A stretch of 64,000 nt of DNA from an uncultured Clostridia bacterium (GTDB lineage: Bacteria; Bacillota; Clostridia; Christensenellales; CAG-138), in contig CAMVNO010000003.1 of the NCBI GenBank assembly GCA_947168855.1, positions 24,574-88,573 of the forward strand, written 5' to 3'. The notes under the pieces are model-generated. The model was not told the origin of the DNA. It was given only the letters and a program-made list of their open reading frames with translations, and made no database searches. Each line of letters begins with the position of its first letter. The first letter of the stretch is position 1. Made by a program: the position numbers and the translations under genes. Positions 9,001-36,451 of the stretch are shown here, one piece after another.

Positions 9001-9630
9001 ATGAACATGCAAGAATACGGAAATCAAGCGTCAAAAACAGTCCTCATACAACCGGTTGACGATCACGACCTTGCGCTGATCGAAAGCGAGGTCGCCGCGA
9101 TCCGCGAAACAACGGACGACTTCCGTTTGATTGCGGTGAAAGTCAACGACTGGAACAAAGATCTGTCCCCGTGGGACGCGCCGCCGGTGTTCGGTTCGGA
9201 ACGCTTCGGTAACGGGGCAGACGGCTTTCTCAAAGAGATTCTTCCGCTTTGCACGGACAGAAGCAAAATATATTTCATCGGCGGATACTCGCTTGCGGGA
9301 CTGTTCGCACTGTGGGCGGCATATCAGACGGATACGTTCGCGGGCGTCGCGGCGGCGTCTCCTTCGATTTGGTTTCCGCACTTTACGGACTACATGCGGA
9401 AATATCCGATCCGCTTGAGACGCGTGTATCTGAGCCTGGGCGATCGGGAAGAACGAACGCGCAATCCCGTCCTGGCAACGGTCGGCACGAGGATCACCGA
9501 AGCGCACGGTCTGCTGCGCGCGCAGGGCGTTGACTGCGTGTTCGAATGGAATCCGGGCAATCATTTTCAAGATCCGGATAAGCGAACCGCCAAGGCCTTC
9601 GCCCGGCTTCTTTCTGACGGAACAATGTGA
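9001..9630 (+). CDS. Alpha/beta hydrolase (esterase family)
   Basis: 209 aa with the nucleophile elbow GGYSLAG and esterase-like spacing. Confidence 0.7.
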   Translation: MNMQEYGNQASKTVLIQPVDDHDLALIESEVAAIRETTDDFRLIAVKVNDWNKDLSPWDAPPVFGSERFGNGADGFLKEILPLCTDRSKIYFIGGYSLAGLFALWAAYQTDTFAGVAAASPSIWFPHFTDYMRKYPIRLRRVYLSLGDREERTRNPVLATVGTRITEAHGLLRAQGVDCVFEWNPGNHFQDPDKRTAKAFARLLSDGTM

Positions 9631-9679
9631 TCGGGAAAACACAATACCATCCCTTTGCAGAATCAGCGGATAAAACTGC

Positions 9680-9708
9680 TTGACAATTTATATTTGATGA
9701 AATATAAT
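9680..9708 (+). promoter_or_regulatory. Sigma-70-type promoter upstream of the MarR-gpx operon
   Basis: TTGACA at 9680-9685, a 17-nt spacer and TATAAT at 9703-9708, about 30 nt before the MarR start. Confidence 0.5.
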
Positions 9709-9738
9709 TGATTCAAACAAGATGAGGAGCGTGGCACA

Positions 9739-10200
9739 ATGGATCATGATTATCATGAGGCAATGAAGCTCAAAAATCAGCTGTGCTTTCCGCTGTATGC
9801 GGCGTCAAGGAACGTAATCGGTCTCTATACGCCGTATCTAAGTCCGCTCGGTCTGACATATACGCAGTATATCGTCTTTCTGACGCTGTGGGAGAAGGAC
9901 GGGGTCACGGTCGGTGAACTTTGCGAAACGCTGATGCTGGATAACGGGACGATTTCTCCCCTGCTGAAAAAGATGCAGCAGGCGGGGTATATTAAGCGAA
10001 CAAGAAGCGAAAAGGATGACCGCGTGGTCGTGATCTCGCTGACGGAAGCGGGAAGAGCGCTGCAGGAGCAGGCAAAGGATATTCCCGCGAAGGCGGCAAA
10101 CTGCATAGCGTTGCCGCCGGAGAAAGCGCAGGCGCTTTATGCGCTGCTGTATGAACTGTTGGACAACCGGAAGAACCATAGAAAGGAGCAAAAACAATGA
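9739..10200 (+). CDS. MarR-family transcriptional regulator (OhrR-like context)
   Basis: 153 aa with a winged-HTH MarR pattern (TYTQYIVFLTLWE...LLKKMQQAGYIKRTRSEKDDRVV). Overlaps the start of the downstream peroxidase gene. Confidence 0.85.
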   Translation: MDHDYHEAMKLKNQLCFPLYAASRNVIGLYTPYLSPLGLTYTQYIVFLTLWEKDGVTVGELCETLMLDNGTISPLLKKMQQAGYIKRTRSEKDDRVVVISLTEAGRALQEQAKDIPAKAANCIALPPEKAQALYALLYELLDNRKNHRKEQKQ

Positions 10201-10742
10201 AAACAGTGTATGATTTCACAGCAAAAGACAGAAAAGGAAACAACGTGAGCCTCTCGGCATATGCAGGCAAAGTGCTGCTGATCGTCAACACGGCGACCGG
10301 CTGCGGCTTTACGCCGCATTACGATCCGCTCGAAGCAATGTACAAAGAAATGAAGGACAAGGGCTTTGAGATTCTGGACTTCCCCTGCAATCAGTTTGCC
10401 AATCAGGCGCCCGGCAGCGAGGATGAGATCCACGAATTCTGCACGCTGAAATTCGGCACGGACTTCCCGCAGTTTAAGAAGATCGACGTCAACGGCGAGA
10501 CTGCCGATCCGCTGTTTGCATACCTTGCGGCGGAAAAGCCGTTCGAGGGCTTCGGAAAGGGCATCAAAAACGCCATGCTCGAAAAGTTCGCCAAGATGAA
10601 CAACAAGCAGTTCGGTGACAAGGCGTACATCAAGTGGAACTTCACAAAATTCTTGATCGACCGCGAAGGCAGAGTCGTTGCGCGCTTCGAGCCGACCGTC
10701 GATATGGCGGATGTCAAAAAGGCCGTCGAAGAAATTCTGTAG
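10197..10742 (+). CDS. Glutathione peroxidase family protein
   Basis: 181 aa. Has NTATGCGFT (Cys in the active-site position), FPCNQF and WNFTKFL motifs. Confidence 0.9.
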   Translation: MKTVYDFTAKDRKGNNVSLSAYAGKVLLIVNTATGCGFTPHYDPLEAMYKEMKDKGFEILDFPCNQFANQAPGSEDEIHEFCTLKFGTDFPQFKKIDVNGETADPLFAYLAAEKPFEGFGKGIKNAMLEKFAKMNNKQFGDKAYIKWNFTKFLIDREGRVVARFEPTVDMADVKKAVEEIL

Positions 10743-10802
10743 GAAAAAACCGAACCGGATCTGCACTTGACAGCATTTATTTCGGATGGTACGAAAAGGC
10801 AA

Positions 10803-11285
10803 ATGACAGTATTCAGAGAAATGCAGAGAAAGAAACAGAAGCTTTCGGAGGAGGAATGCATCCGCCTGCTCAAAACCGAACTGCGCGGCGTGCTGTGCGT
10901 TCTGGGCGACGACGACTATCCGTACGGCGTACCGATCAACCACTGCTATTGCGAAACGGACGGAAAGATCTATTTCCACGGCGGCAGGACGGGGCATAAG
11001 ATCGACGCCTTAAAGCGGCATCAAAAAGCATCCTTCTGCGTCTATGATAAGGGCTTCCGTAAAGATGGGGAATGGGCGCTGAACATTCGGTCGGTCATCG
11101 TTTTCGGCAGAATCGAGTTTATTGAGGATCAAGATGTCATGATTCGGATGGCCGAAGCGCTCAGCCGGAAATTTACGGATGACGAAGCGTACATCAGAAG
11201 CGAGATCGAGCGTTCCGGACCGAGCACATTGATGTTTGCATTGATCCCGGAACATATCACAGGGAAGATCGTCAACGAAGCATAG
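10803..11285 (+). CDS. Pyridoxamine 5'-phosphate oxidase family protein (Nim-like)
   Basis: ORF track starts at TTG 10767; ATG 10803 is preferred. MQRKKQKLSEEECIRLL...GDDDYPYGVPINH...IYFHG is the typical Nim/PNPOx pattern. Confidence 0.7.
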   Translation: MTVFREMQRKKQKLSEEECIRLLKTELRGVLCVLGDDDYPYGVPINHCYCETDGKIYFHGGRTGHKIDALKRHQKASFCVYDKGFRKDGEWALNIRSVIVFGRIEFIEDQDVMIRMAEALSRKFTDDEAYIRSEIERSGPSTLMFALIPEHITGKIVNEA

Positions 11286-11344
11286 GTTGCTGAAACTGAA
11301 TACAGGACAACACAATTCGGCAACAGGAGAAATCAGAGTACAGT

Positions 11345-12484
11345 ATGAAAGAACAAAACAATGATATTGACGTCCTTGCGGCAAACAGAGAGAAAACGAT
11401 CGTTAAAACCAGCATCATCGGTATCCTGACGAACGTGCTGCTCGTCGGATTCAAAGCGTTCGTCGGGCTGATGTCCAACTCCATCGCGATCATTCTGGAT
11501 GCGGTCAACAATCTGTCCGATGCACTTTCGTCTGTCGTGACGATCATCGGCGCGAAGCTCGGTGCAAAGCAGCCTGACAAAAAGCATCCGCTGGGCTACG
11601 GCAGGATCGAATATCTGAGTTCCATGATCGTCGCCGCGCTCGTGCTTTACGCAGGCATCACGTCATTGGTGGAATCGATCAAAAAGATCATCCGCCCGGA
11701 AGCCGCCGAATACGGTACCGTAACGCTCGTCATCATCTCGGTGGCGATCGTTGTCAAACTGATTCTCGGTCTGTACGTGAAAAAACAGGGTAAAAAGGTC
11801 AACTCCGGTGCGCTCGTTGCCTCCGGCTCGGACGCCATGTTTGATGCGATCCTGTCCGCTTCGGTGCTTGCTTCGGCGATCGTTTATCTGATCTGGGGCG
11901 TCTCACTGGAAGCATACGTCGGCGTCGTGATTGCCGGATTCATCATCAAGGCGGGCGTCGAAATGATGATTGAAACGCTGAACGACATCATCGGCAAGCG
12001 CGAGGATGCGGAGACCACGAAGGAGCTGAAACAGATTATCTGTGAGGAAGAATCCGTTCTCGGCGCGTATGACGTGACGCTGTTCAATTACGGACCGAAC
12101 AGGAACTACGGCTCCGTGCATGTGGAACTGCCGGACACGCTGACCGTTGACGACGTCGACCGTATTACGCGTAAAATTCAGGTTGACGTTTATCAAAAGA
12201 CCGGCGTGATCCTGACCGGTATCGGTGTGTATTCCTACAACACGTCGAACGACGAAGCAGCGCAAATGCGCAACAAGGTTCAGGAAACTGTCCTGTCGCA
12301 CGAATGGGCATTGCAGATGCACGGCTTCTATGCGGACACGGAAAAGAAAACGGCTCGTTTCGACGTCGTCATGAGCTTCGACGTCGACCGGAAAGAAGCT
12401 CTTGAAACAATGTACAAAGAAATCTGCGGAATGTATCCGGACTACGAAATCGTGATCGTGCCGGATGTGGACGTTGCCGATTGA
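11345..12484 (+). CDS. Cation diffusion facilitator (CDF) family transporter
   Basis: 379 aa with six TM segments, the SDALSS signature in TM2 and a C-terminal cytoplasmic domain. Confidence 0.85.
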   Translation: MKEQNNDIDVLAANREKTIVKTSIIGILTNVLLVGFKAFVGLMSNSIAIILDAVNNLSDALSSVVTIIGAKLGAKQPDKKHPLGYGRIEYLSSMIVAALVLYAGITSLVESIKKIIRPEAAEYGTVTLVIISVAIVVKLILGLYVKKQGKKVNSGALVASGSDAMFDAILSASVLASAIVYLIWGVSLEAYVGVVIAGFIIKAGVEMMIETLNDIIGKREDAETTKELKQIICEEESVLGAYDVTLFNYGPNRNYGSVHVELPDTLTVDDVDRITRKIQVDVYQKTGVILTGIGVYSYNTSNDEAAQMRNKVQETVLSHEWALQMHGFYADTEKKTARFDVVMSFDVDRKEALETMYKEICGMYPDYEIVIVPDVDVAD

Positions 12485-15512: not shown

Positions 15513-15524
15513 GAAGGAGTGCAT

Positions 15525-15734
15525 ATGATCGTAACAGATGCCAAATCATTCGGAGAAGCTATCCGCAAAAGACGGAAGCAGCTGGGCTATACGCAGGCTT
15601 ATCTTTCCGAGTTTACCGGGATGAGCGTCAGCTTTCTGTCCGATTTGGAAAACGGAAAGCCAACGATAGAACTGGAGAAAGCGATCCGTATCGCAAACCA
15701 GTTGGGCCTGGATTGCTCTGTGACGGAGAGGTAA
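15525..15734 (+). CDS. hipB: XRE-family HTH antitoxin (HipB-like)
   Basis: About 70 aa. The HTH (LGYTQAYLSEFTGMSVSFLSDLENGK) is present, aaggag lies 5 nt upstream of ATG 15525, and hipA follows 3 nt downstream. Confidence 0.85.
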   Translation: MIVTDAKSFGEAIRKRRKQLGYTQAYLSEFTGMSVSFLSDLENGKPTIELEKAIRIANQLGLDCSVTER

Positions 15735-15737
15735 CAA

Positions 15738-17009
15738 ATGGAATTTACGGTCTGTATCGATATTAAGGGGAAACCGGTTGCTGTCGGATCGATTTCGGGA
15801 GAGAGCAGTGCGGACGCGCGGTTCACATACGCAGCCGATTATCTGAATGCATCCGAAGCGGTTGCGATCTCCTTCAGCCTGCCGCTTCGATCGGAGCCGT
15901 TCTCAGCGGAGCAAACCAAATGCTTTTTTGACGGATTATTGCCGGAAGGTTTCACGCGCCGCGCGGTCGCATCGAATCTGCACCTGGATGAAAATGATTA
16001 TGTGCAGATCCTGTATCAGCTCGGCCGTGAATGCATCGGCGCGCTGCGCGTGTATCGAAAGGGAGAAAAGCCGCAGGCGTTTTATGATAAGCTGACGCGC
16101 GAACAGGTCCGTGAATTGGCGCGTGAAGGGGCGACCGAATCTGCAGCGGTCGTGATCGAATCCAGGCTGTCGCTTGCCGGTGCGACCGGGAAAGTCGGTT
16201 TATACCGGGATCCGAAGACGGGGGAGTGGTACCTGCCCCGCGGAACGGCGCCGAGCACCCATATCGTGAAGCAAAGCCATGTTCGGCTGGAACGGATCGT
16301 TCCGAATGAACTGCTATGCTTGCTGACGGCGAAGCAATGCGGGATCGACGTTCCGGAAACGACGATCATCGATCTCGGATCCGGAAAGGATGAGGACATC
16401 CTGCTTGCGTCCGAACGGTTTGATCGCCGCTTTTCGGAACAATCTGCATTCGCGAATGAATTGCCAATGCCGCTGCGTTTGCATCAGGAGGATTTCGCAC
16501 AGGCGTTGGGCATCCCGGCGTCACGGAAATACGAAAACGGGGACCGGCATCTTGCAAAGATGTTCGCGCTGCTGCGCACGCATTCTTCCCAGCCGATCGA
16601 GGACCAGCTGAAGCTATGGGACAGGATCGTATTCAATTGTCTGATCGGGAACACCGACGGTCATCTGAAGAACTATTCTTTGCTGTACAGCGAGGATCTG
16701 AAGACGGTCCGACTTGCCCCGGCATATGACGTGATCAATACGATCGGCTACAAAGGTATGACGCATGAAATGTCATTTATGATCGGCAACGCAAAACGGA
16801 TCGAAGACGTAACGCGCGATTCCTTCCGCACGGCAGCCAGGGAAGCCGGACTTGGTGAACGGATGGCGCTGAACCGACTGGACGTGATGGCCAAACGCTT
16901 CCGCCCGGCGCTGGAATCTGCGGCTGAGACGCTGATACATCAGGGTGTCAAAGGAGTAGATGCGCTGAAAGCAATCATACTGGATCGCAACCCAAACACG
17001 TTGCAATAA
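15738..17009 (+). CDS. hipA: Type II toxin HipA-family serine/threonine kinase
   Basis: 423 aa with a HipA N-terminal coupling domain and the catalytic loop GNTDGHLKNYS. Confidence 0.9.
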   Translation: MEFTVCIDIKGKPVAVGSISGESSADARFTYAADYLNASEAVAISFSLPLRSEPFSAEQTKCFFDGLLPEGFTRRAVASNLHLDENDYVQILYQLGRECIGALRVYRKGEKPQAFYDKLTREQVRELAREGATESAAVVIESRLSLAGATGKVGLYRDPKTGEWYLPRGTAPSTHIVKQSHVRLERIVPNELLCLLTAKQCGIDVPETTIIDLGSGKDEDILLASERFDRRFSEQSAFANELPMPLRLHQEDFAQALGIPASRKYENGDRHLAKMFALLRTHSSQPIEDQLKLWDRIVFNCLIGNTDGHLKNYSLLYSEDLKTVRLAPAYDVINTIGYKGMTHEMSFMIGNAKRIEDVTRDSFRTAAREAGLGERMALNRLDVMAKRFRPALESAAETLIHQGVKGVDALKAIILDRNPNTLQ

Positions 17010-17221
17010 ATACACTCCCTTCATCTTACCTTGCAATAATGCGAAGCACGATGACCGCATCGTGCTTTTTTATTGCTCATATTTGATCAAAAACATGGCA
17101 AAAACGGTATAAATCGATAATAAATTAGCAGTGACAATTTTTTCTGCGAACACACATTCGCACATTTGTATGTTACAAATCACAGTGATATTCTTATTCC
17201 AAACAGAAAGGAGAAGAGCAT

Positions 17222-17437
17222 ATGAGTAAAATCATTAGGAACATGATACGGTGCAATACTTGCGGGGACACTATTGAAAGCACATCGCGCCACGATTTCA
17301 AATACTGCAAATGTGGTCGTGTGTTTGTCGATGGCGGCCATGACTATCTTTGCAGAGGATATACTGTTTCTCCAGTGGATTTCACCGAGTTATCTGTGGA
17401 AGCAGAAGACGATTCGTCTGAAGATAGTTCAAAATGA
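17222..17437 (+). CDS. Small zinc-ribbon protein, function unknown
   Basis: 71 aa with CNTCG...CKCG Cys pairs and an acidic tail. Good RBS (aaaggagaag). AT-rich. Confidence 0.55.
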   Translation: MSKIIRNMIRCNTCGDTIESTSRHDFKYCKCGRVFVDGGHDYLCRGYTVSPVDFTELSVEAEDDSSEDSSK

Positions 17438-17455
17438 TTCACATCCCAAATCAAC

Positions 17456-17484
17456 TTGAATAATGCACGTTTTTACGTTATAAT
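17456..17484 (+). promoter_or_regulatory. Candidate promoter of the helicase-NUDIX operon
   Basis: TTGAAT at 17456-17461, a 17-nt spacer and TATAAT at 17479-17484, about 30 nt upstream of ATG 17517. Confidence 0.45.
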
Positions 17485-17516
17485 TGCATTAATCAATTCA
17501 GATGGTGGAGAGACAC

Positions 17517-20500
17517 ATGCTTCCAACCGGTTTATACGAACAGATTATCAGTAAAGCATTGGATCGAGAGCTTGCCATATCGGACAAGCGCAGCCAGACT
17601 GCGCCGATCGATGACGCTGAAGCGGCTAAAATCCTGGCGAAATATGTAGCAGAAATCGTCGAACGCGGGCTTGAGAACGTGAAGGATAACGGCGGTGGTC
17701 TGAACTCCCAGGTGGAGCTTGTGAATCGCATTGTATCTACTATCGTCAATGAGACAAGGGAAGAAGCATTCGAAGGGATGTCCGTTGCGGAACGTGCTGA
17801 GCAGCTGCTGGCATTGCTTGATACAAAGAATACGATCCATGCAGTCGATGCGCGCGCGGAGATCGTCCGTCCGGAAACATCGATCGCGCAGAGCTCGCTC
17901 TTTACCGGCGCGGTGCATGAACCGCAGATGTATACGGAGCTGAAAAAAGAGATCGTTTCCTGCGACCGTATCGATATGATCGTGTCGTTCATCAAATGGA
18001 GCGGCCTACGGCTGATCATCAACGAACTGACCGAATTCACACAAAACGGTGGGGAACTGCGCATCATCACGACCTCGTATATGGGCGCAACGGATGTCAA
18101 GGCAATCGAAGAACTGCGCAAGCTTCCGAATACTCGGATCAAGGTCAGCTATAACACCAACATCACGCGCCTGCACGCAAAGGCATATATCTTTTATCGC
18201 GACACCGGCTTTACAACGGCGTATGTCGGTTCGTCCAATATTTCCAATGCTGCGCTGACCAGCGGCTTGGAATGGAATACGAAAATTACGAAAAAGGATC
18301 TTCCGGAAACGATCGATAAGGTTGCTGCGACCTTTGAGTTTTACTGGAATGATAAAGAATTTGAATACTACGACGAAGGGCAGTGCGAGCGTCTTGCCCG
18401 TGCACTGAAAGCGGAACGATACCACGACACCAATAATCCGGCATTGTACACGGTGGATGTGCAGCCGTATTCGTATCAACAGGAGATTCTTGATCGACTG
18501 GATGCGGAGCGCACGGTGCGAGGGTATTATCGCAACCTGGTCGTAGCAGCTACCGGAACAGGGAAAACGATCATTTCCGCATTAGACTATAAGCGCTTCT
18601 GCAAACGGAATCCGGACAAGCCATGCAGGCTGCTGTTCGTTGCCCATCGTGAGGAGATCCTGCAGCAGAGCATAGCCGCATTTCGTGCTGTGTTGAAGGA
18701 TGCGAACTTCGGTGCGCTGTTTGTCGGCAATTATCGGCCGGAGAGCATCGACCATCTGTTCATGTCGATCCAGACATTCAATTCGCAATCCTTCACGGAA
18801 AAGACGACGGCAGATTTGTATGACTATATCATCGTGGACGAGTTCCACCATGCTGCCGCGCCGACCTATCAAAAGCTGCTGTCATATTATCAGCCAAAGA
18901 TCCTGCTCGGATTGACAGCGACCCCGGAACGCATGGACGGCAGAAGCATTTTGCCGTACTTCAATAACCGTATTGCAGCGGAGATCCGCTTGCCGGAAGC
19001 GATCGACCGGAAGCTCTTGTGCCCGTTCCAATACTTCGGCGTGACGGATACAATCGATCTGGATTCGCTGAAATGGGCGAGGGGCGGATATGACCGGGCA
19101 GAGCTGTCGAACATTTACACGTTCAGCGGATACGAGGCAAGACGCCGCGCGGATCATGTGATTTCATCTTTGCTGAAATATGTAACAGATATCGATGACG
19201 TCAAGGGACTGGGCTTCTGTGTCACAATCGAACACGCCGGGTTTATGGCGGAGTATTTCAATGCACACGGCATCCCGTCGATCTGCCTGACCGGCGAATC
19301 CTCCGACGAGGAACGTAAAACGGCGAAGAGACGGCTTGTGTCCGGAGAGATCCGATTCATCTTCGTAGTCGATATTTACAACGAAGGTGTCGACATTCCG
19401 GAGGTCAACACGGTTCTGTTCCTGCGACCGACCGAATCGCTGACGATCTTTTTACAGCAGCTTGGACGCGGTCTGCGCCTTGCTGAAAACAAAGATTGCC
19501 TGACCGTTCTTGACTTCATCGGACAGGCGAACCGAAAGTACAATTTCGAGGACAAGTTCGCTGCGCTGCTTTCCAATACAACGCGCGGTGTGTCGCGTGA
19601 GATCAAGGAAGGCTTCACTTCTCTGCCGAAGGGCTGTTATGTGCAGCTCGAAAAGAAAGCGGAAAGCTATATCCTGGACAATATCCGCGCTTCCTACGGT
19701 AGCAGCGCGGGTCTCGTATCGCGCATCGAGGGCTTTGAAAAGGATACCGGACGCGAGCTGACGCTTGCAAACTTCCTGGAGTATTACCATCTCGATCCGC
19801 GTGCTATTTACAAATATGCGACGTTTTCACGTCTTTGTGCGCGTGCAGGCGTGATGGATGATTTCATTGAGCCGTTGGAAGAAACACTGACAAAAGCATT
19901 TTCGCGCCTTGCGGTCATCGACTCCCGCCGTTGGATCAGGTTTCTTTTGGATTTGCTCCCGCGTTTGGACGATGTGGATTTCGCCGCCTTGCCCGATTTG
20001 GAAAAGCGGATGTTGCAGATGTTTTATGTCACGGTGTGGAGCAAAACCGCGGATGACTGGAACAGCGACGAGGTGCTGGACAATCTGTATGCGCTTGCCG
20101 ACAGCCCGGTGCTGCTCGGCGAGCTTTGCACATTGTTGCAGTACCGCTACGATCATATCGACTTCATCGACGAACCGGTCGATCTCGGGTTCGAATGCCC
20201 GCTCGATCTGCATTGCACCTATACGCGCGATCAGCTGCTCGTAGCGCTCGATTTCATGAAGCCCGCGACCGTGCGCGAAGGCGTCAAGTGGCTGCCGGAT
20301 AAGAAGCTGGATGTGTTCTTTGTCACGCTGAATAAAGCGGATAAGGATTATTCGCCTACGACGATGTACAACGATTATTCCATCAACAGTGAGCTGTTCC
20401 ACTGGCAGAGTCAAAGCACCACGGCCGCAGAGTCGCCGACGGGGCAGCGGTATATTCATCATCAGGAGCGCGGCAGCCGCGTACTGCTGTTCGTCCGTGA

Positions 20501-20666
20501 ATTCAAGACGGATCGCCTTTCCGGCGGTGCAGAGGCATACACATTCCTTGGAACAGCCAATTATGTGAAGCATGAAGGTTCCCGTCCGATGAACATTACC
20601 TGGAGCCTCGACGCGCCGATCCCGGCGAAATACCTGAAGAAGACGAATAAGCTGGTGGTCGGTTGA
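17517..20666 (+). CDS. PLD-like nuclease / SF2 DEAD-DEAH helicase / DUF3427-type C-terminal domain protein
   Basis: HKD motif (LHAKAYIF...GSSNIS), Walker A (ATGTGKT), VDEFHH, LTATPER and QQLGRGLR. The last ~350 aa resemble DUF3427 by recollection. ATG 17517 follows ggagag. Confidence 0.85.
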   Translation: MLPTGLYEQIISKALDRELAISDKRSQTAPIDDAEAAKILAKYVAEIVERGLENVKDNGGGLNSQVELVNRIVSTIVNETREEAFEGMSVAERAEQLLALLDTKNTIHAVDARAEIVRPETSIAQSSLFTGAVHEPQMYTELKKEIVSCDRIDMIVSFIKWSGLRLIINELTEFTQNGGELRIITTSYMGATDVKAIEELRKLPNTRIKVSYNTNITRLHAKAYIFYRDTGFTTAYVGSSNISNAALTSGLEWNTKITKKDLPETIDKVAATFEFYWNDKEFEYYDEGQCERLARALKAERYHDTNNPALYTVDVQPYSYQQEILDRLDAERTVRGYYRNLVVAATGTGKTIISALDYKRFCKRNPDKPCRLLFVAHREEILQQSIAAFRAVLKDANFGALFVGNYRPESIDHLFMSIQTFNSQSFTEKTTADLYDYIIVDEFHHAAAPTYQKLLSYYQPKILLGLTATPERMDGRSILPYFNNRIAAEIRLPEAIDRKLLCPFQYFGVTDTIDLDSLKWARGGYDRAELSNIYTFSGYEARRRADHVISSLLKYVTDIDDVKGLGFCVTIEHAGFMAEYFNAHGIPSICLTGESSDEERKTAKRRLVSGEIRFIFVVDIYNEGVDIPEVNTVLFLRPTESLTIFLQQLGRGLRLAENKDCLTVLDFIGQANRKYNFEDKFAALLSNTTRGVSREIKEGFTSLPKGCYVQLEKKAESYILDNIRASYGSSAGLVSRIEGFEKDTGRELTLANFLEYYHLDPRAIYKYATFSRLCARAGVMDDFIEPLEETLTKAFSRLAVIDSRRWIRFLLDLLPRLDDVDFAALPDLEKRMLQMFYVTVWSKTADDWNSDEVLDNLYALADSPVLLGELCTLLQYRYDHIDFIDEPVDLGFECPLDLHCTYTRDQLLVALDFMKPATVREGVKWLPDKKLDVFFVTLNKADKDYSPTTMYNDYSINSELFHWQSQSTTAAESPTGQRYIHHQERGSRVLLFVREFKTDRLSGGAEAYTFLGTANYVKHEGSRPMNITWSLDAPIPAKYLKKTNKLVVG

Positions 20667-20667
20667 T

Positions 20668-21093
20668 ATGAAAACAATTAGAGTTGTCGCAGCCATCATC
20701 CATAAAGACGGAAAGATCTTTGCAACGCAGCGCGGATACGGCGCGTACAAGGATTATTGGGAATTCCCCGGCGGAAAGATCGAAGCAGGGGAGACGCCGG
20801 AACAGGCACTGGTTCGCGAAATCCAGGAAGAGCTTGCAACAACGATCCGAATCGAACGGTTCCTGACGACGGTGGAGTATGATTATCCGGAATTCCATCT
20901 GTCCATGGATTGCTTTATCTGCACCATCGTACAAGGTAAATTGGACCTTCTGGAGCACGAATCCGCTCGCTGGCTTTCGAAGGAACATTTGCACGATGTA
21001 AACTGGTTGCCCGCAGATTTATTGGCTGTTGATAAACTTGGGAAAGGATCTTGGGCAGATCAGGGTATGTGCTGTAAGAAAAGCAGATTCTAA
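20668..21093 (+). CDS. NUDIX hydrolase (MutT / (d)NTP pyrophosphohydrolase-like)
   Basis: Perfect Nudix box GGKIEAGETPEQALVREIQEEL. Starts 1 nt after the helicase stop. Confidence 0.9.
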   Translation: MKTIRVVAAIIHKDGKIFATQRGYGAYKDYWEFPGGKIEAGETPEQALVREIQEELATTIRIERFLTTVEYDYPEFHLSMDCFICTIVQGKLDLLEHESARWLSKEHLHDVNWLPADLLAVDKLGKGSWADQGMCCKKSRF

Positions 21094-21136
21094 TATCGAA
21101 CAAGCATCTGCAAATCTATTCGCGAATACTATACTG

Positions 21137-21595
21137 CTAAAAGGCCCAGCCTTCAGCGGCACATAAACCATTAATGTTTACTGTACAAATCCCATATGAC
21201 CTGCATATATAGGGGATTTTATTCTGTTTATCTTGGTTCTCTTCGGTGATGATTGTCAGATGATACTTCATCGCTGTAGCTATTAAAAACGCATCACCAG
21301 AGGAGGAACCCTTACCTCCAGAGGAAAAATCTATCATCTTAGGGTGTTCGGTTACTATTTTTCTAACATTTCGTTGCACATCGTTGTCAATCGGGATAAT
21401 GACACATTGCTTTGTTTTTAGCCATGTTCCGACATAACTATCATTTTCCACTTCTTCTTCGATCTCTGAACAAGTAACAATCAATTGCTCAGTTATATAT
21501 TTCTCAACTGATGCCCACAAGCTTCTATGTGTTTGACGTGGGAAAGAATCAGATGGTTTCTGCGCAAAAATTGATGATGAATCAATTTGTACCAT
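21137..21595 (-). CDS. DUF4411-like PIN-fold protein (putative orphan toxin/nuclease)
   Basis: 152 aa. GDAFLIATAMKY...TIITEE and the C-terminal IPYICRSYGI resemble DUF4411 by recollection. No partner gene remains upstream; the IS starts 28 nt away. Confidence 0.5.
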   Translation of the reverse strand: MVQIDSSSIFAQKPSDSFPRQTHRSLWASVEKYITEQLIVTCSEIEEEVENDSYVGTWLKTKQCVIIPIDNDVQRNVRKIVTEHPKMIDFSSGGKGSSSGDAFLIATAMKYHLTIITEENQDKQNKIPYICRSYGICTVNINGLCAAEGWAF

Positions 21596-21622
21596 TCCAA
21601 AGCATTGTTTCTAATATGTATT

Positions 21623-22635
21623 CTGGTTATCGGTTTTAATCAGCAAAATACAAGATATAGGTTAATGTGCCTTTTATGGGACATCGGCCATGGTATACTT
21701 GGTGCATAGAGAACGAAAGGCGGCGTGAGCTATGCACCACAAGGAAGAATTGAGTCTGAGAAAGTTTCTGAATCGTTTCCCGACTGAGGAAAGCTGCGAA
21801 GAATACCTGTTTCAGCAGAAGTGGCCGGACGGGTTTATTTGCCCGAAGTGTGGTTGCCGTGAGTTTTACCACATCAAGGGACGTAAGCTGTATCAGTGTA
21901 AGCACTGCCGTCACCAGAGCTCCGTCACGGCAAACACCGTCATGCACAGAACACACAAGCCACTGACGACATGGTTCCAGGCCATCTACTTTGTTGCATC
22001 CGACAAGCGCGGTATTTCCGCTTGCACCTTAGCCGGCAAACTGGATATTTCTTATGAAACAGCCTGGTATATGCTTGTTCGCATTCGCAAGGCCATGGAT
22101 CACAGGGAAAGCCAGTATATGCTTGCAGGCATTGTTGAGCTGGACGACTCCTACTTCGGAGCAAAAATCAAGGGCAAGCGTGGCCGTGCTGCTGGAAACC
22201 AGAGTGTGATTGTTTGCGTGTCGAAGGACAGCAAGGACCGCCCTCAATTCTTGAAAATGACTGTAGTGCCGAATGTACAGCGGTCTACAGTAGAGCAATT
22301 TGTGGATGCCGCCATTGAAAAAGGCACAACCGTTCAAACTGATAGCTACCGCAGCTATATCAAGCCTCTCAGAAAAGGATACAACCACGAGTCTGCGGAT
22401 TTTGATCCGAACAGTGAGCATTTGAAATGGCTCCACACCATCATTGGCAACGCGAAAGCCTTTCTGAAGGGCACTTACCACGGTACAAGCACGAAATACT
22501 TGCAGTCTTATCTCAGCGAGTTCTGCTATAGATTCAACCGCAGGAGCTTTCACGGGCAGATCTTTGACCGCTTGGTCCTTGCCGTTTCCTCCTGCAACTA
22601 AATCTTGTGCCTTGCTGAGTTAAGCCGATAACCAG
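21623..22635 (+). mobile_element. IS1595-family insertion sequence
   Basis: Imperfect 22-bp terminal inverted repeats: ctggttatcggttttaatcagc at 21623-21644 and gctgagttaagccgataaccag at 22614-22635. They flank a single transposase gene. Confidence 0.8.
21732..22601 (+). CDS. IS1595-family (ISXO2-like) transposase
   Basis: 289 aa. N-terminal zinc ribbon (CPKCGC...CKHCRHQ) followed by a DDE domain (ELDDSYFG...). Confidence 0.88.
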   Translation: MHHKEELSLRKFLNRFPTEESCEEYLFQQKWPDGFICPKCGCREFYHIKGRKLYQCKHCRHQSSVTANTVMHRTHKPLTTWFQAIYFVASDKRGISACTLAGKLDISYETAWYMLVRIRKAMDHRESQYMLAGIVELDDSYFGAKIKGKRGRAAGNQSVIVCVSKDSKDRPQFLKMTVVPNVQRSTVEQFVDAAIEKGTTVQTDSYRSYIKPLRKGYNHESADFDPNSEHLKWLHTIIGNAKAFLKGTYHGTSTKYLQSYLSEFCYRFNRRSFHGQIFDRLVLAVSSCN

Positions 22636-22673
22636 ATAATTTATTTGTATCGCTGCCTGTGTCCTGACGCAAA

Positions 22674-22708: not shown

Positions 22709-22849
22709 TACTTTTATGCCAAAATTGGCCTTTTTCGCCTCAAAAGTGCGCTGACAAGGTGAATTTGAAGTATTCTGAGGCCCAAGAGATCATCTGGTGA
22801 GGCCGGTTTTAGGGACATTTTGCCCTGATTTTCTGCTTTTCAGGACAAA

Positions 22850-22965
22850 AATCACGCGATTATAGAGGAGAAATCGCGTGATTTATGGGGGTAATCGCGT
22901 GATTTATGGGGTAATCGCGTGTTTTTAGTGGTAATCGCGTGTTTTTAGTAGTAATCGTCGATGGT
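22850..22965. repeat. Iteron-like array with core TAATCGCGTG (about five direct copies at 20-21 bp spacing plus one inverted copy)
   Basis: Reading gives aatcacgcgatt (inverted), then (g)taatcgcgtgatttatgggg x2, taatcgcgtgtttttagt(g/a)g x2, then taatcgtcgatgg. Confidence 0.8.
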
Positions 22966-24743: not shown

Positions 24744-26108
24744 TCAGTGATCCACAATGACGCTGCCCCGGTTTTTCCAGCTGCCCTTCCGGTAGTAGAC
24801 CAGCATGGCGGCACTGGTGAGGATCCAGGACACGGGATAGCAGAGGCAGAGAACAAAGAGGGTGTGGATCTGGGCGAAGAGGGTGACGATCCAGACAATC
24901 CGCAGCAGGCAGATGCCCAGGCCGATGATGATGACGGGCCGCACCGCGTCGCCGCAGCCCCGGAGCACGCCGGAGAGCACCTCGATCACCACCCAGGTGA
25001 AGTAGTAGGGCACGAAGTAGATCATCATGAGCCAGGTGGTGTCCCGCACCGCCTGGTCCTTGGTGAGGATGTAGAGCAGGGGACGTCCGGTTAACATAAT
25101 GATTCCCGACAGGGTCAGGGTGATGACGGTGGCGAGAATCATGCCCTGCTTGACGCAGAGCTTCACCCGGTCGTCCCGGCCCGCGCCTCGGTTCTGACCC
25201 ACGAAGCTGGTAATGGCGGCGCCCAGGGCGTTGCTGACGGCCCAGAAAATGCCGTCGGTCTTGCCGGTCATGACCCAGGAGGCCACCACCACGGTGCCCA
25301 GGGAGTTGACGCCCACCTGGATGATCATGTTGGACACGGCGTACATGGAGGACTGGAGTCCCGCGGGGACGCCCAGCCGCAGCATGTTTTTCAGGTAGAC
25401 GCCATTCAGCCGCAGCTCCCGGAGGCTCAGCCGGTAGCTCTCCTTGGTGGTCATCAGCCTCCAGGTCAGCATACCCATATTCAACACCTGGGCCGCCACG
25501 GTGGCCACGGCCACCCCGGCTACGCCCCAGCCCAGCACCAGCACAAAGAGGCTGTCCAGCAGAACGTTGGTGACGCAGCCCGCCACCATGTACAGGAAGG
25601 GACTGACGGAGTCCCCCACGGAGCGGAGCATGTTGGACTCCATATTCAGCACCAGAATGAAAGGCACCCCGATGAAGTAGATCCGCAGATAGAGAATGGC
25701 GTCCTCCAGGGTGTCCGCCGGGGTCTTCAGCAGCCGCAGCATGGCCGGGGACAGCACCAGGCCGAAGCCCATCAGCAGCAGCCCCAGCAGGGCGAAGACC
25801 GCAATGGCGTTGCCGGCGGCGATCTGCACGTCCCGGGCCCGGTTGGCCCCGTAGACCTGGGCGATGACCACCGAGGCCCCGGAGGTGATGGCCACGAAGA
25901 AGCCGATCAGCAGATTGATGATCTGTGCGGAGCTGCCGCCCACGGCGGCCAGGGCAGTGGTGCCCACGAAGCGACCCAGGATCAGGCCGTCCACGGCGTT
26001 ATAGAGCTGCTGGATACAGGTCCCGGCGGCGATGGGCAGGAAGAAGATCAGCAACTTCTTCCACACCACGCCCTCCGTCAGGTTTTTTCGGTCTAAGTGT
26101 TGTTCCAT
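24744..26108 (-). CDS. MATE-family efflux transporter
   Basis: 454 aa, 12 TM, with the canonical N-terminus (LLIFFLPIAAGTCIQQLYNAVDGLILGRFVG). Confidence 0.9.
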   Translation of the reverse strand: MEQHLDRKNLTEGVVWKKLLIFFLPIAAGTCIQQLYNAVDGLILGRFVGTTALAAVGGSSAQIINLLIGFFVAITSGASVVIAQVYGANRARDVQIAAGNAIAVFALLGLLLMGFGLVLSPAMLRLLKTPADTLEDAILYLRIYFIGVPFILVLNMESNMLRSVGDSVSPFLYMVAGCVTNVLLDSLFVLVLGWGVAGVAVATVAAQVLNMGMLTWRLMTTKESYRLSLRELRLNGVYLKNMLRLGVPAGLQSSMYAVSNMIIQVGVNSLGTVVVASWVMTGKTDGIFWAVSNALGAAITSFVGQNRGAGRDDRVKLCVKQGMILATVITLTLSGIIMLTGRPLLYILTKDQAVRDTTWLMMIYFVPYYFTWVVIEVLSGVLRGCGDAVRPVIIIGLGICLLRIVWIVTLFAQIHTLFVLCLCYPVSWILTSAAMLVYYRKGSWKNRGSVIVDH

Positions 26109-26111
26109 GGG

Positions 26112-26738
26112 TCACTGCTCCTCAAACCACTTCTCCGCGAAGTCCCCCAGGGCCTCGGTGAGCTTTTTGATGTCCCAGCCGGTGGTGTTCACCGTCAACT
26201 CGAAGGCGCTGCCGTCGCCGCTGGCTTTGCCGGTGAGGATTTCCCGGGTGTTGGCCCGATTCTGGTCGATGCGGCGGATGTTCCGCAGAATCTGCTTCTC
26301 TGTCAGCCGTTCCTCTTGGGGACGGTTTGCCTCGTGTCCCATGCAGCGGGCCAGTCGGGCCTGCAGATCTGCGCAGACGAAAATCCGGAAGGGATGATAG
26401 TCCTCCAGAATCAGGTCCGCGTCCCGGCCGATGATGATGCAGTCGTTCCCCAGGACGGCGATGTCCCGCAGCACATCCCGCTCCCGCCGCAGCAGCTGGG
26501 CGCTGTGACCCGGGTCATACAGCAGGTGGGAAAAGCTGTTGCGGTAGGTGAGCTGGACATTGTGCCAGCCGTGGTTGGCCAGGGCCCGCTTCACGTCTTC
26601 CGGATCCAGGCCGTGCTCCGCCGCCAGGGTGTCGATGATTTCCTTGTCGTAATAGTCCCAGCCCAACCGGTCCGCCAGGCGCTTTCCCAGCTCCCGGCCC
26701 CCGCTGCCGAACTGGCGGCTGATGGTGATGATTCGCAT
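26112..26738 (-). CDS. Cytidylate kinase-like AAA family protein
   Basis: MRIITISRQFGSGGRELGKRLA... P-loop. ATG at 26738 is preceded by ggagg. The longer ORF-track start is probably spurious. Confidence 0.8.
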   Translation of the reverse strand: MRIITISRQFGSGGRELGKRLADRLGWDYYDKEIIDTLAAEHGLDPEDVKRALANHGWHNVQLTYRNSFSHLLYDPGHSAQLLRRERDVLRDIAVLGNDCIIIGRDADLILEDYHPFRIFVCADLQARLARCMGHEANRPQEERLTEKQILRNIRRIDQNRANTREILTGKASGDGSAFELTVNTTGWDIKKLTEALGDFAEKWFEEQ

Positions 26739-26861
26739 AATGGATTGCCTCCGAATGTCGTTTTCGTTCCTTCTGATTATATCACAAGTTTCCTCCTGAG
26801 CAAGGGGCAAGCATCCAAAGAAGCCTGCGGGCTGAACTGTTACTGCAGGCTCCATTCATAT

Positions 26862-27401
26862 GTTAAATATTTTTTCGCGAATCCCTTTATCACACGTGAC
26901 TATGCGAAAGCAAAGGAATGGATAAAGGGGCAGGTTCGCGGATCCCAACGCTGCGGAGTTCTTGCCTGCAGCAGTGCTCAGAGACTTAAGCCGGAAGGGA
27001 TCTACGTTCCAACGGAAATTGATGTGAAGAACTGGTTCCTTGCTCCGAGCGATGATCTTCGTTCTTCAAATATGATGGAAATCGTCGCAAGTGAGTTTAA
27101 GGTTCAAGGCCTTGAAATTGATTGGGCAGTCGTTTGCTGGGATGCTGATTTAAGAAGGAAAGTGAGCGGGAACGGATGGGATTACTATAGTTTCCGGGGA
27201 ACAAAATGGACAAAAAGAAACCAGATTGCGCAGCAAAGATACTTGATTAATTCATATCGAGTGTTGCTTACAAGAGCACGGCAGGGCATGGTTATATTTG
27301 TTCCGCAAGGTGTAGATGCAGAAGAAGATGAAACGCGCAATTCTGTTTTCTATGATCAAATCTACAGCTATTTGATCTCCTGCGGGATCAAAGAATTATA
27401 A
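26862..27401 (+). pseudogene. DUF2075-type (Schlafen-like ATPase) C-terminal fragment, 5'-truncated
   Basis: The tail ...SYRVLLTRARQGMVIFVP... is characteristic of DUF2075 C-termini. The upstream portion of the listed ORF is antisense of the GC-rich patch. Confidence 0.55.
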
Positions 27402-29331: not shown

Positions 29332-29827
29332 CTACCTTCATTTTATCGATCATCATGTCCAAAAGTCTTCCCAGCATTCCTGTTCATCTTACCATATCCT
29401 ACAAAAACAACTGTCCGATAAATGGGACGACAAAAAGTTTTTAAAACTTTTTTCGGAAAGTGGTACCGATTTTCGGGTCCAGATTTCCTAATATATAGAG
29501 GCAGATTTTACGAGCGCTGCCCCATTTTTTGAGGAAGGAGGATAAACCGGGATCGCACCGCGCCGCGGGAAGGGAACAGTTCGGACAGAGTCTTTGCATC
29601 GAGCGCAGAATATCTGCGCTTTTTTCGTATGAAAACGATGCATCATGGAAGACGGAAATCAAAAATCGCGCCGCAAACAGCGGGGGAAAGGATGTGTATG
29701 AAACACGAAAACAACAACGCTGCCGGGCAAATGAACGCCCGAATCGTCATGTGCATGATCCGTAAAATAGCGGAAGCGCATGACCTGAACCGCATTTTAG
29801 AACAGAAACACAAGGAGGAAAAACACA

Positions 29828-30283
29828 ATGAAAATGCACTATGTGATGCTGAAACGGTACGGCGAGTTCGTGCCTGCAATCAAATGGGAAGGCAATGTGT
29901 ACAGCATTGCCGATTATATCGGGGAGACGGTCGGCAAGGTTCGGCTTGTTTTCTTCGATGAGGAAGACAAAAAGTACGGGATCCTGGTCGACGGTGAATA
30001 CGGCGACAAAGTATGGATGCCGCTCGGACAGTGGCCTTGGCTGAAGGTGAGGGAATACGTCAGCGCAAACCCGGGAGCAACCTTCTGGTTTGTGACGAGC
30101 TATTCGGAAAAACGCGGTCGCGTGAAGATCCGGAAAGTCGCATGGTTCTATGAGCCGGAAGAGGAAGAGGACTCCGTCCAAAACCGTAACGAGCAGGGAA
30201 CTTGTACGGCAAGTTCCATGCCGCCGAACGGGTCGGCGGGTTCTTTAGGGGCCACCCCTAACACCCCGGAGGCAGACGCATGA
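29828..30283 (+). CDS. Hypothetical protein
   Basis: 151 aa. RBS aaggagg. Overlaps the mobC start by 4 nt. Confidence 0.55.
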   Translation: MKMHYVMLKRYGEFVPAIKWEGNVYSIADYIGETVGKVRLVFFDEEDKKYGILVDGEYGDKVWMPLGQWPWLKVREYVSANPGATFWFVTSYSEKRGRVKIRKVAWFYEPEEEEDSVQNRNEQGTCTASSMPPNGSAGSLGATPNTPEADA

Positions 30284-30549
30284 AGGAACGGCTGGAGGTT
30301 CGTCTGAGTGAAGACGATAAGGCCGCGATCCGCGCCAAGGCGAAAGCCTGCGGGCTGAGCCAGAGCGAGTACATCCGGAAGCGTGCGCTGGGATATACGC
30401 CGCGCGCAGCGCCGAACGACGCGCTGCACGATCTCACTTCCGGGTTGTGTGAGATCGCAAACCGGAATCTGAGCAAGGAAACGGAAGCCGCACTGCTGAG
30501 CCTGCTGGAACGGATCCGAAAGGAACTGTTCGGTTCCGGAAAGGATTGA
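30280..30549 (+). CDS. mobC: MobC-family relaxosome accessory protein (RHH)
   Basis: RLEVRLSEDDKAAIRAKAKACGLSQSEYIRKRALG is the classic MobC/RHH pattern. Immediately upstream of the relaxase gene. Confidence 0.85.
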   Translation: MKERLEVRLSEDDKAAIRAKAKACGLSQSEYIRKRALGYTPRAAPNDALHDLTSGLCEIANRNLSKETEAALLSLLERIRKELFGSGKD

Positions 30550-30550
30550 C

Positions 30551-31849: not shown

Positions 31850-31889
31850 CCCGGGCGCTCAAATCATTTTCAAAAGAGAAAGGAACTGT

Positions 31890-32780: not shown

Positions 32781-33018
32781 AAATGTGCAATCGTACAATC
32801 GCCGCACATTTGACCGCGCTCGTTCGAAACGTGATAATAAATGCAGGGTGCCGGTTTCTGCGCATTTCGTCTTCGATGAAAACAAGCAGACAGTGAGGGA
32901 TTTCGAATACGAAGAAGTCTCTTTGGCACTGATCGTCGATCAACTCACGCAGAAGTTCGGCGTGGATCTGGAGATGCTTGAGAGCATCGCCGCAGAGAAA
33001 GGAGAACAAGCCCAATGA
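32764..33018 (+). CDS. Hypothetical small protein
   Basis: 84 aa. Overlaps both neighbours. Confidence 0.45.
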   Translation: MTATDKNVQSYNRRTFDRARSKRDNKCRVPVSAHFVFDENKQTVRDFEYEEVSLALIVDQLTQKFGVDLEMLESIAAEKGEQAQ

Positions 33019-36440: not shown

Positions 36441-36451
36441 AGAAAGTATTG

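Follow-up and report, generated by a model that had tools for sequence, protein, structure and literature searches.

Introduction

SauUSI of Staphylococcus aureus catalyzes the ATP-dependent cleavage of DNA at S(5mC/5hmC)NGS, where 5mC is 5-methylcytosine and 5hmC is 5-hydroxymethylcytosine, and it restricts Dcm+ phage and plasmids (PMC3141236). The enzyme restricts and cleaves DNA by itself, both in vitro and in E. coli (PMC3141236, PMC7913695). It is a dimer formed through its PLD domains; recognition of the modified base by an SRA-like domain activates the ATPase and translocation, and the DNA between sites is shredded (PMC7913695). According to Tumuluri et al., D858 and W868 of SauUSI belong to the pocket into which 5-methylcytosine is flipped (PMC7913695). 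Here we describe a gene that very likely encodes a member of this family and is followed, after a single base, by a gene for a Nudix hydrolase. Both lie in a 64-kb window, the whole stretch of DNA that was analyzed, from an uncultured Clostridia bacterium (contig CAMVNO010000003.1, positions 24,574 to 88,573). Coordinates are positions in this window, and L-numbers denote surveyed comparison loci.

In 2011, Xu et al. described a conserved MutT/Nudix gene, of no assigned function, in linkage with sauUSI and at least 60 of its homologues (PMC3141236). Monk et al. deleted the corresponding gene of S. aureus Newman (Sae2385) in 2012 and saw no gain in transformability. A figure legend in a 2020 survey labels MutT homologues beside SauUSI homologues. 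Apart from that note, that deletion, and that legend, the literature searched yielded no function for a SauUSI-linked Nudix protein and no tie to 5-methyl-dCTP. A preliminary description of the window, made from its letters alone, had named no defined mechanism for the pairing; the 2011 report shows that the pairing is not new, and the biochemistry and crystal structure of the family are published. The lead worth following is the putative accessory role of the Nudix protein. For Type IV enzymes, an immunity factor is considered unnecessary, the host simply lacking the mark.

Other Type IV modules are directed at 5mC/5hmC as well. Those DUF3427 proteins that have been assayed bind 5mC or 5hmC DNA and restrict the 5hmC phage T4gt. 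DUF3427-nuclease fusions of the McaZI/BwiMMI/EfaL9I group and McrB-N readers occur in defense islands, often with C5 methylases and DUF2075/SLFN helicases. Among Nudix hydrolases, Q5LBB1 of B. fragilis (3GWY) was screened against 74 compounds and acts on 5-Me-CTP, 5-Me-dCTP, and 5-hydroxymethyl-dCTP with kcat/Km values of 4-7 x 10^6 M^-1 s^-1 (PMC5158307). The values for 5-Me-dCTP and 5-hydroxymethyl-dCTP are 4-5 x 10^6, and activity on canonical nucleoside triphosphates (NTPs) is much lower (PMC5158307). E. coli NudG, a pyrimidine (deoxy)nucleoside triphosphate diphosphatase, prefers 5-methyl-dCTP, with a kcat/Km higher than that for CTP.

Results and Discussion

A SauUSI-Family Nuclease

The large protein of the pair matches the PADLOC profile mREase_IV (PDLC03659) with 768 bits (2.8e-231), residues 119-1043 aligning to profile positions 12-934 of 945. 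A second PADLOC Type IV profile, PDLC03658, scores 320 bits. Among solved structures, sequence comparison ranks the SauUSI crystal structure 7CLG first (8.4e-94), in a match that covers the PLD domain, the ATPase, and the coupler; a second match to 7CLG, over the recognition domain, is weak (19 bits, i-E-value 0.0025). An AlphaFold2 model based on 33 diverse homologues has a mean predicted local distance difference test score of 83.6. Searching with this model, Foldseek returns 7CLG first (5.2e-48 over 941 columns), followed by bare helicase cores such as RadD (2e-17). Pfam detects PLDc_2 (3.4e-11), ResIII/DEAD (3.1e-35), Helicase_C (4e-13), and DUF3427 (1.4e-22), in that order, and with the Nudix match in the next gene it confirms the HKD, SF2 helicase, DUF3427, and Nudix elements that the preliminary description had named. 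The family is large, with 3488 clusters (50% identity) at or below 1e-30. Table 1 lists the features of the locus.

Table 1. Features of the nuclease-Nudix locus and its immediate flanks
Feature	Position	Strand	Basis
hipB-hipA toxin-antitoxin pair, left flank (hipB 15519-15734; hipA 15738-17009)	15519-17009	+	Pfam HipA_C 3.5e-51, Couple_hipA; NCBIfam couple_hipB 1.5e-17
Terminator-like hairpin after hipA, parting the hipBA unit from the cassette	17043-17068	+	11-bp stem, then T-run; consensus match only
Small zinc-ribbon open reading frame (ORF), DUF7695, 71 aa, upstream of the promoter candidate	17222-17437	+	Pfam DUF7695 5.4e-24
Sigma-70-like promoter candidate for the nuclease-Nudix operon	17456-17484	+	TTGAAT, 17-nt spacer, TATAAT; 10/12 matches
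Predicted SauUSI-family Type IV restriction endonuclease gene, 1049 aa	17517-20666	+	PADLOC mREase_IV, PDB 7CLG, Foldseek
N-terminal helical extension, ~115 aa, subfamily-specific	17517-17861	+	AlphaFold2 helices 6-21, 33-57, 62-80; conserved across the 33 homologues
PLD-family (HKD) nuclease domain	17967-18347	+	Pfam PLDc_2 3.4e-11, RE_NgoFVII 5e-8
SF2 helicase-like translocase ATPase	18459-19481	+	Pfam ResIII 3.1e-35, Helicase_C 4e-13
C-terminal SRA-like target-recognition domain (DUF3427 core)	20196-20630	+	Pfam DUF3427 1.4e-22; aligns to SauUSI 837-920
GGTGG Shine-Dalgarno of the Nudix gene, within the nuclease gene at its 3' end	20654-20658	+	Read from sequence; 9 nt to ATG
Nudix hydrolase, MutT/NudG clade, 141 aa	20668-21093	+	Pfam NUDIX 1.2e-18, NUDIX_4 8.5e-17; PADLOC PDC-S07 6.1e-52
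PIN-like DUF4411 gene	21137-21595	-	Pfam DUF4411 3.6e-20

The catalytic residues were examined in an alignment of the 33 homologues, which are 36-59% identical. The PLD residues H220, K222, G238, S239, and N241 (H-x-K...GSxN) are invariant. So are the SF2 residues GxGKT (347-351), D441, E442, H444, and H445 of DEFHH, ATP (468-470) within TATPER, and Q647, Q648, and G650-R654 of QQLGRGLR. In the recognition domain, D953 (invariant) and W963 (nearly invariant) align with SauUSI D858 and W868. In the sequence alignment to 7CLG, the SauUSI pocket residues F841/I842/D858/W868 are faced by F/V/D/W; two further pocket residues, Y831 and M829, fall outside the aligned stretch. The whole 64-kb window holds no C5-methyltransferase or Vsr homologue, and its sole methylase is of the N6/N4 type (42409-44376) and lies within a separate Type III-like cluster.

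Every defining feature of the family that a sequence can reveal is present: the H-x-K/GSxN nuclease motif, SF2 motifs I, II, III, and VI, the coupler and SRA-like DUF3427 reader, the profile match, and the lack of a cognate methyltransferase. The gene is therefore assigned to the SauUSI family, and we have little doubt that it encodes a Type IV, modification-dependent, ATP-dependent restriction endonuclease. This assignment supports the earlier suggestion of a defense nuclease directed at modified DNA. By analogy with SauUSI, the protein would read 5mC/5hmC and cleave DNA in an ATP-dependent manner as a dimer held by its PLD domains. PbeA, a Type I or III R subunit, and RadD were also considered for the large protein and were rejected; their PADLOC, NCBIfam, or PDB matches cover the helicase or PLD core only, with far lower scores.

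The window protein shares with SauUSI the domain order (PLD nuclease, SF2 ATPase, helical coupler, SRA-like DUF3427 reader), the conserved catalytic and pocket residues, the absence of a companion methylase, and an adjoining Nudix gene. However, the two are only ~25% identical over the structural alignment, and the recognition domain of the window protein is strongly diverged. The extra N-terminal helical region of ~115 residues belongs to the subfamily of the window protein and is lacking in SauUSI, the PADLOC and 7CLG matches starting only past it, at about residues 119-146. E126 of SauUSI (H-x-K-x4-E, H+7) aligns to a Tyr here, at a position that is variable in the clade. The Nudix gene lies downstream in the window, whereas it lies upstream in S. 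aureus. The DUF3427 fusions and McrB-N readers share the logic of a modified-cytosine reader, and close Nudix relatives follow such proteins as well; in contrast to SauUSI-type enzymes, they have no PLD or helicase domain in the same polypeptide, and cleavage falls to a PD-(D/E)XK domain or to an HNH protein encoded separately.

Homologues of the nuclease with 62-77% identity occur in L014, L018, L022, L023, and L026, which carry the labels Paludibacteraceae, Bacteroides, Desulfovibrio, Akkermansia, and Muribaculaceae. This distribution suggests that the gene moved recently between phyla among gut bacteria, unless binning errors in metagenome-assembled genomes (MAGs) are responsible. In L019, L029, L032, and L082, a second, diverged SauUSI-like paralogue (1e-53 to 1e-95) lies directly upstream of the main copy. 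In L061, the nuclease ORF has a Vsr-like gene ending 4 bp ahead of it and a fragment of a C5 methylase downstream.

The Nudix Protein and Its Relatives

The 141-residue Nudix protein matches the PADLOC family PDC-S07 end to end, residues 1-126 aligning to profile positions 3-130 of 135. PDC-S07 is a candidate family derived from defense-island statistics. The Nudix box, described earlier as perfect, retains its catalytic residues (G36-x5-E42-x7-R50-E51-I-Q-E54-E55-L); at its end, A57 and T58 replace the consensus Gly and aliphatic residue. A comparable deviation (D-Y) is found at the end of the box of the active enzyme Q5LBB1. Among solved structures, the best matches are 5X1X (1.3e-23) and then 3GWY (2.8e-23). 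The 5X1X protein is 57-61% identical to Nudix genes that lie upstream of SauUSI homologues in two Bacillales genomes.

The alignment to MutT and NudG, whose sequences were checked against the PDB, draws attention to one position. D117 of the window protein, in the sequence LPAD, occupies the position of D118 in NudG and N119 in MutT. The same Asp is present in 3GWY, 5X1X, NudG, and all SauUSI-linked Nudix proteins, and MutT has Asn. We take Asn119 of MutT to be its 8-oxoguanine-reading residue, and the Asp or Asn at the aligned site to be the base-reading position. In a neighbor-joining tree of 126 columns, computed without support values, MutT falls outside, and the SauUSI-linked Nudix proteins enclose both Q5LBB1 and NudG; the sister of Q5LBB1, from L020, is 49% identical to it.

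Three described proteins are close enough to compare. Q5LBB1 resembles the window protein in size, in the deviation at the end of its Nudix box, and in the Asp at the base-reading position, but its own gene stands apart from SauUSI homologues, beside a DprA-like gene. Its preferred deoxynucleotide substrates are the triphosphates of both bases that SauUSI recognizes in DNA. NudG (Orf135; 2RRK) shares the clade and the PAD motif, with Asp118 equivalent to Asp117, whereas its R72 and R77, which are presumably important, are not conserved in the window protein. The Nudix protein linked to SauUSI itself (SAUSA300_2432; Sae2385 in Newman) is likened here by position and family rather than by sequence. 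It is also a small MutT-family protein encoded directly beside the nuclease, although the gene order is reversed relative to the window and its deletion gives no restriction phenotype.

Recurrence of the Nuclease-Nudix Linkage

Linkage was surveyed from both sides. The nuclease-side scan, with one genome per species, yielded 80 loci at 40-98% identity, from Bacillota, Bacteroidota, Proteobacteria, Verrucomicrobiota, and Methanomicrobia. When the window Nudix protein was used in an iterated search, 18 of these loci proved to have a directly adjoining Nudix gene, nine times upstream and nine times downstream, in one case on the opposite strand. The 18 belong to Bacillota and Bacteroidota, plus one MAG labeled Bordetella. 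When the count is restricted to loci flanked on each side by 500 bp or more, a Nudix gene adjoins the nuclease in 16 of 53 species genomes (30%). In IMG/VR contigs, 11 of 20 full-length nuclease homologues have a Nudix gene directly downstream. A plasmid collection contained only distant nuclease homologues (at most 50% identity), on megaplasmids, and the best of them has no Nudix neighbor.

The Nudix-side survey covered 80 metagenomic loci with Nudix proteins 59-90% identical to that of the window, 68 with an upstream and 59 with a downstream neighbor. The upstream neighbors include 14 DUF3427 proteins, five of them clearly full PLD-helicase proteins, along with three SLFN-group-3/DUF2075 helicases and two McrB-N proteins; the others are assorted metabolic genes. 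Where a 5mC reader lies upstream, the junction is often an overlap or 1-20 nt. No conserved downstream partner was found, the 59 neighbors falling into 41 families that each occur at most twice. Those downstream neighbors include GmrSD, HsdM, and SNF2/ResIII defense genes.

Three loci illustrate the range of partners. In L128 (3500-7086), a 371-residue DUF3427 protein, the Nudix protein, an HNH_4 protein, and a NERD protein are encoded in a tight operon beside a Mu-like transposase. In L157 (1093-5393), a gene for a McrB_N/NOV_C protein lies 14 bp upstream of the Nudix gene, with a C5 methylase nearby. In L011, a 98%-identical Nudix gene (P0121) starts one base past the upstream stop codon and closes an operon of Z1, DUF4420, AIPR, C5 methylase, Vsr, and SLFN helicase genes. 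Because of the DUF3427, McrB-N, and methylase-Vsr contexts, the recurrent partners can be said to carry or accompany 5-methylcytosine functions; for the SLFN helicases, this tie is documented in L011 only.

The nuclease-Nudix linkage is real, far beyond chance, and recurrent yet optional. The recurring feature is 5-methylcytosine reading by the partner or, in L011, the partner's place in an operon that writes this mark, and no particular nuclease recurs. The neighborhood survey that the preliminary description had called for returns a recurrent but optional association, with relatives of the Nudix protein in housekeeping contexts as well.

Proposed Mechanism and Its Alternatives

By homology with SauUSI, for which each of the following steps is established, the nuclease would dimerize through its PLD domains. 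The C-terminal SRA-like domain would flip 5-methyl- or 5-hydroxymethylcytosine out of incoming DNA, and this recognition would turn on the SF2 ATPase, so that the enzyme translocates along the DNA. The PLD dimer would then cut both strands and shred the DNA between two modified sites. Host DNA would be spared because the host lacks the modification.

The Nudix protein would be an optional accessory rather than a subunit. It may convert 5-methyl-dCTP and 5-hydroxymethyl-dCTP to the monophosphate and pyrophosphate, keeping marked nucleotides out of replicating host DNA, so that the chromosome never gains the marks that the nuclease attacks. The 5-substituted dCTP could be a product of phage metabolism or of the salvage of methylated DNA after its degradation. 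Such sanitizing would be the counterpart, in the nucleotide pool, of Vsr action at Dcm sites. A possible, secondary side effect is a futile cycle that starves phages dependent on 5-hydroxymethyl-dCTP. As a portable cassette, the Nudix gene could plug in behind SauUSI types, short DUF3427 readers with an HNH nuclease, McrB-N/NOV_C proteins, and Dcm-Vsr operons.

This role is consistent with the data because the Nudix protein is dispensable for restriction, because copies exist in housekeeping settings, and because it associates with readers and writers of 5mC. We consider it probable that the locus as a whole combines a SauUSI-family nuclease with an optional Nudix sanitizer. That the Nudix protein is specifically a 5-substituted-dCTP pyrophosphohydrolase that keeps the restricted mark out of the host chromosome is a tentative proposal, drawn by analogy. 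Its extension, in which the protein is a dedicated 5-methyl-/5-hydroxymethyl-dCTP sanitizer and a portable anti-autoimmunity accessory for methylcytosine-directed restriction generally, is put forward more tentatively still. The earlier suggestion that the Nudix protein may act on modified deoxynucleoside triphosphates (dNTPs) agrees with the reading favored here.

Several observations weigh against these proposals. About 70% of the genomic SauUSI homologues (37 of 53) have no adjoining Nudix gene, and most close relatives of the Nudix protein have unrelated neighbors. At each of its 10 sites, one 74%-identical homologue, P0227, is surrounded by phosphotransferase system (PTS), pyruvate-kinase, and hydrolase genes. 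The window protein scores 92.9 bits against the NCBIfam MutT equivalog TIGR00586, a near-top score just below the cut-off of 97.9, and 85.5 bits against the NudG equivalog PRK10546 (cut-off 156); because it falls short of both cut-offs, it is filed in the MutT/NudG clade as an orthologue of neither. The measured cases of a kinetic preference for 5-substituted (d)CTP are Q5LBB1 and NudG only. The identity between the window protein and Q5LBB1 is 39%, and the tree that joins them carries no support values. The cluster of Q5LBB1 (P0391, P0392) has no SauUSI homologue within 6 kb, the gene standing alone by its DprA-like neighbor; the substrate argument stays at 39% homology because Q5LBB1 is not encoded beside a SauUSI homologue. 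A sufficient supply of 5-methyl-dCTP from salvage in bacteria is presumed. Finally, the modification read by the window clade could differ from that of SauUSI because the recognition domain is so diverged.

The Nudix protein could instead be an ordinary MutT-type house-cleaning enzyme that acts on 8-oxo-dGTP or other oxidized or mutagenic dNTPs and that, functionally unconnected with the nuclease, hitch-hikes on mobile cassettes. The MutT equivalog score and the uniformly metabolic surroundings of P0227 are what such an enzyme might show, as is the deletion in S. aureus without a restriction phenotype, and source databases name homologues of the window protein "8-oxo-dGTP diphosphatase." However, the Nudix gene directly adjoins the nuclease gene in 30-55% of loci, with either gene first and across two or more phyla. 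Its further ties, to unrelated 5mC-reader architectures and to a Dcm-Vsr operon, add to a pattern not expected of a random housekeeping neighbor. The replacement of Asn119 by Asp, as in the pyrimidine-specific NudG and Q5LBB1, likewise speaks against this explanation. We regard the house-cleaning explanation as unlikely.

A slightly lower probability attaches to the view that the Nudix protein is an independent, single-gene anti-phage effector that depletes nucleotides needed by phages, in which case its position would reflect the clustering of defense genes. The full-length PDC-S07 match, the defense- and mobile-element-rich region, and the GmrSD, HsdM, and SNF2/ResIII genes downstream of its relatives are consistent with this view, and a 5-hydroxymethyl-dCTPase could stall T-even-type phages. 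However, PDC-S07 is a candidate only; in the literature searched, it turned up only in lists of PADLOC-detected systems, and no functional test came to light. The protein consists of a Nudix fold alone, 130-140 residues long and devoid of a sensor or regulatory domain, and close homologues reside in plainly housekeeping operons. Its partner is specifically an upstream 5mC-reader module, not defense genes generally.

Equally improbable, in our estimate, is that the clade with the 1049-residue nuclease reads a modification other than 5mC/5hmC, such as another 5-substituted pyrimidine, and that the Nudix protein is matched to that nucleotide. The weak match of the recognition domain to SauUSI and the extra N-terminal domain could be read in this way. 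The same may be true of the preference of the clade for PDLC03659 over PDLC03658, depending on which of these is SauUSI's profile. Against this reading, the Asp and Trp that touch the flipped base in the pocket of the SauUSI model are conserved. Moreover, the DUF3427 proteins that have been tested bind 5mC/5hmC DNA and restrict T4gt, and 5mC is likewise the base that concerns the remaining Nudix partners, McrB-N and the L011 Dcm-Vsr operon.

An obligate two-component system, in which the nuclease needs the Nudix protein to sense or cut its target and which the earlier account of a coupled pair had implied, is highly improbable despite the one-base junction with its internal Shine-Dalgarno and the L128 Nudix gene set between the genes for a DUF3427 reader and an HNH nuclease, given that SauUSI acts alone, that the Newman Nudix deletion strain is not transformable, that most genomic homologues have no adjoining Nudix gene, that the 74%-identical Nudix protein sits amid housekeeping genes, and that the Nudix cassette has been swapped between upstream partners exactly at its ATG.

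If the sanitizing role is correct, it gives a function to a linkage unexplained since 2011 and to the PADLOC candidate PDC-S07. If the Nudix protein does destroy 5-methyl- and 5-hydroxymethyl-dCTP, Type IV enzymes have a metabolic safeguard after all, which would explain why the same Nudix protein is found beside several unrelated 5mC-reading modules. At the level of routine annotation, the locus is one more SauUSI-type barrier to methylated foreign DNA, on a mobilizable element in a gut-type Clostridia genome, and it can be used in predicting which plasmids or phages can enter such strains.

Gene Layout and Expression Signals

The ORFs of the locus are the zinc-ribbon ORF (17222-17437, 71 residues), the large ORF (17502-20666, 1054 residues), and the Nudix ORF (20668-21093, 141 residues). 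The placement of the ORFs, the size of the large protein, and the one-nucleotide gap agree with the preliminary description: the nuclease gene stops at TGA 20664-20666, and after a single base the Nudix ATG begins at 20668. Translation of the large gene probably starts at ATG 17517, giving 1049 residues, rather than at the upstream ATG 17502, which gives 1054. The downstream start is favored because nearly all of the ~120 closest homologues have 1049 residues and because GGTGGAGAG (17505-17513), a good Shine-Dalgarno sequence, precedes the second ATG. The nuclease and Nudix genes are probably co-transcribed and translationally coupled; coupling is suggested by the position of the Nudix Shine-Dalgarno inside the upstream gene.

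The promoter candidate is the best-scoring site in 16900-21700, in keeping with the consensus-like promoter described earlier. However, promoter-like sites are no more frequent than in shuffled sequence (6 observed versus 7.3), so the candidate is supported by its position alone. The zinc-ribbon ORF noted just upstream is present, but it is not part of a conserved unit. Among ~100 related loci with upstream sequence, only the nearest relative, L012, has DUF7695 beside the nuclease, and DUF7695 is ruled out as a third conserved component on this basis. The flanking hipBA and PIN-like genes are confirmed by Pfam and NCBIfam, and the island between them lies in a defense-rich mobile-element region.

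A Mosaic of Cassettes on a Mobilizable Element

The two genes of the pair have different closest relatives. The cassette formed by DUF7695 and the nuclease (17139-20666) is 91% identical to positions 5623-9150 of L012, from Clostridiales MAG-R050, whose nuclease is the closest relative of the window protein (98% amino acid identity). The Nudix-DUF4411 block (20668-21587) is 95% identical to positions 10001-10920 of L011. The swap falls exactly at the Nudix ATG, and no shared repeat or recombination site is visible at this junction. In L012, a reverse-transcriptase gene (RVT_1, 460 residues) and two small ORFs (9210-11351) part the nuclease gene from the Nudix gene; this insert may be a defense-associated reverse-transcriptase cassette.

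The homology to L011 ends 8 nt before the DUF4411 ATG. In L011, a Peptidase_M78 gene follows and overlaps DUF4411, and no M78-peptidase gene was found in the window. DUF4411 travels with the Nudix gene in the L011 element and has lost its M78-peptidase partner in the window. Immediately upstream of the DUF4411 start, where L011 has Peptidase_M78, sits an IS1595-family element (21602-22656). Its transposase gene occupies 21732-22601, and its imperfect inverted repeats, each 59 nt long, span 21602-21660 and 22598-22656. Between this element and an aldo/keto reductase gene, a 20-bp unit (consensus AATCGCGTGTTTTTAGGGGT) is repeated 4.2 times (22872-22957), with an inverted copy at 22845-22862; the array looks like an operator or iteron array.

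Further along, 26097-27401 holds the 3' fragment of a Schlafen-group-3/DUF2075 helicase gene, encoding 434 residues versus 662 in L011. Over its final 520 bp, the fragment shares 91% identity with the helicase gene placed directly before the 98%-identical Nudix gene of L011. In the window, the fragment precedes unrelated ORFs rather than the Nudix gene, which indicates cassette rearrangement. A mobilizable backbone follows (29521-34508), with genes for a relaxase (30551-31849), ParB (31836-32780), and a large serine recombinase (33015-34508), and its stretch 29521-34483 is 85% identical to L011. The L012- and L011-like blocks, the shared backbone, and the swaps at gene borders together identify the region as a mosaic of defense cassettes on a mobilizable element.

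Between 34.5 and 60.7 kb, the window contains ~26 kb more than L011, and defense and mobility genes continue over 34.9-57 kb, beyond the shared backbone. A second defense cluster (34874-49638) comprises an AAA_14/DUF4143 ATPase, a 1072-residue SNF2 helicase, DUF4391, two unannotated ORFs, and the N6/N4 DNA methylase, along with a Thoeris-like pair (ThsA-Macro and ThsB-TIR), DUF2971, and a 1019-residue Type III Res-like helicase-endonuclease. The DNA from 40 to 46 kb is poor in GC (34-47%). A second mobility module (50291-57191) consists of DUF6076 on the minus strand, ParB (52553-53482), a relaxase (54113-55486), and a tyrosine integrase (56001-57191), which suggests a nested or tandem second element. 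Past 57191, a TPR-DUF6273 protein and a second DUF2971 gene are encoded in DNA of 36-43% GC.

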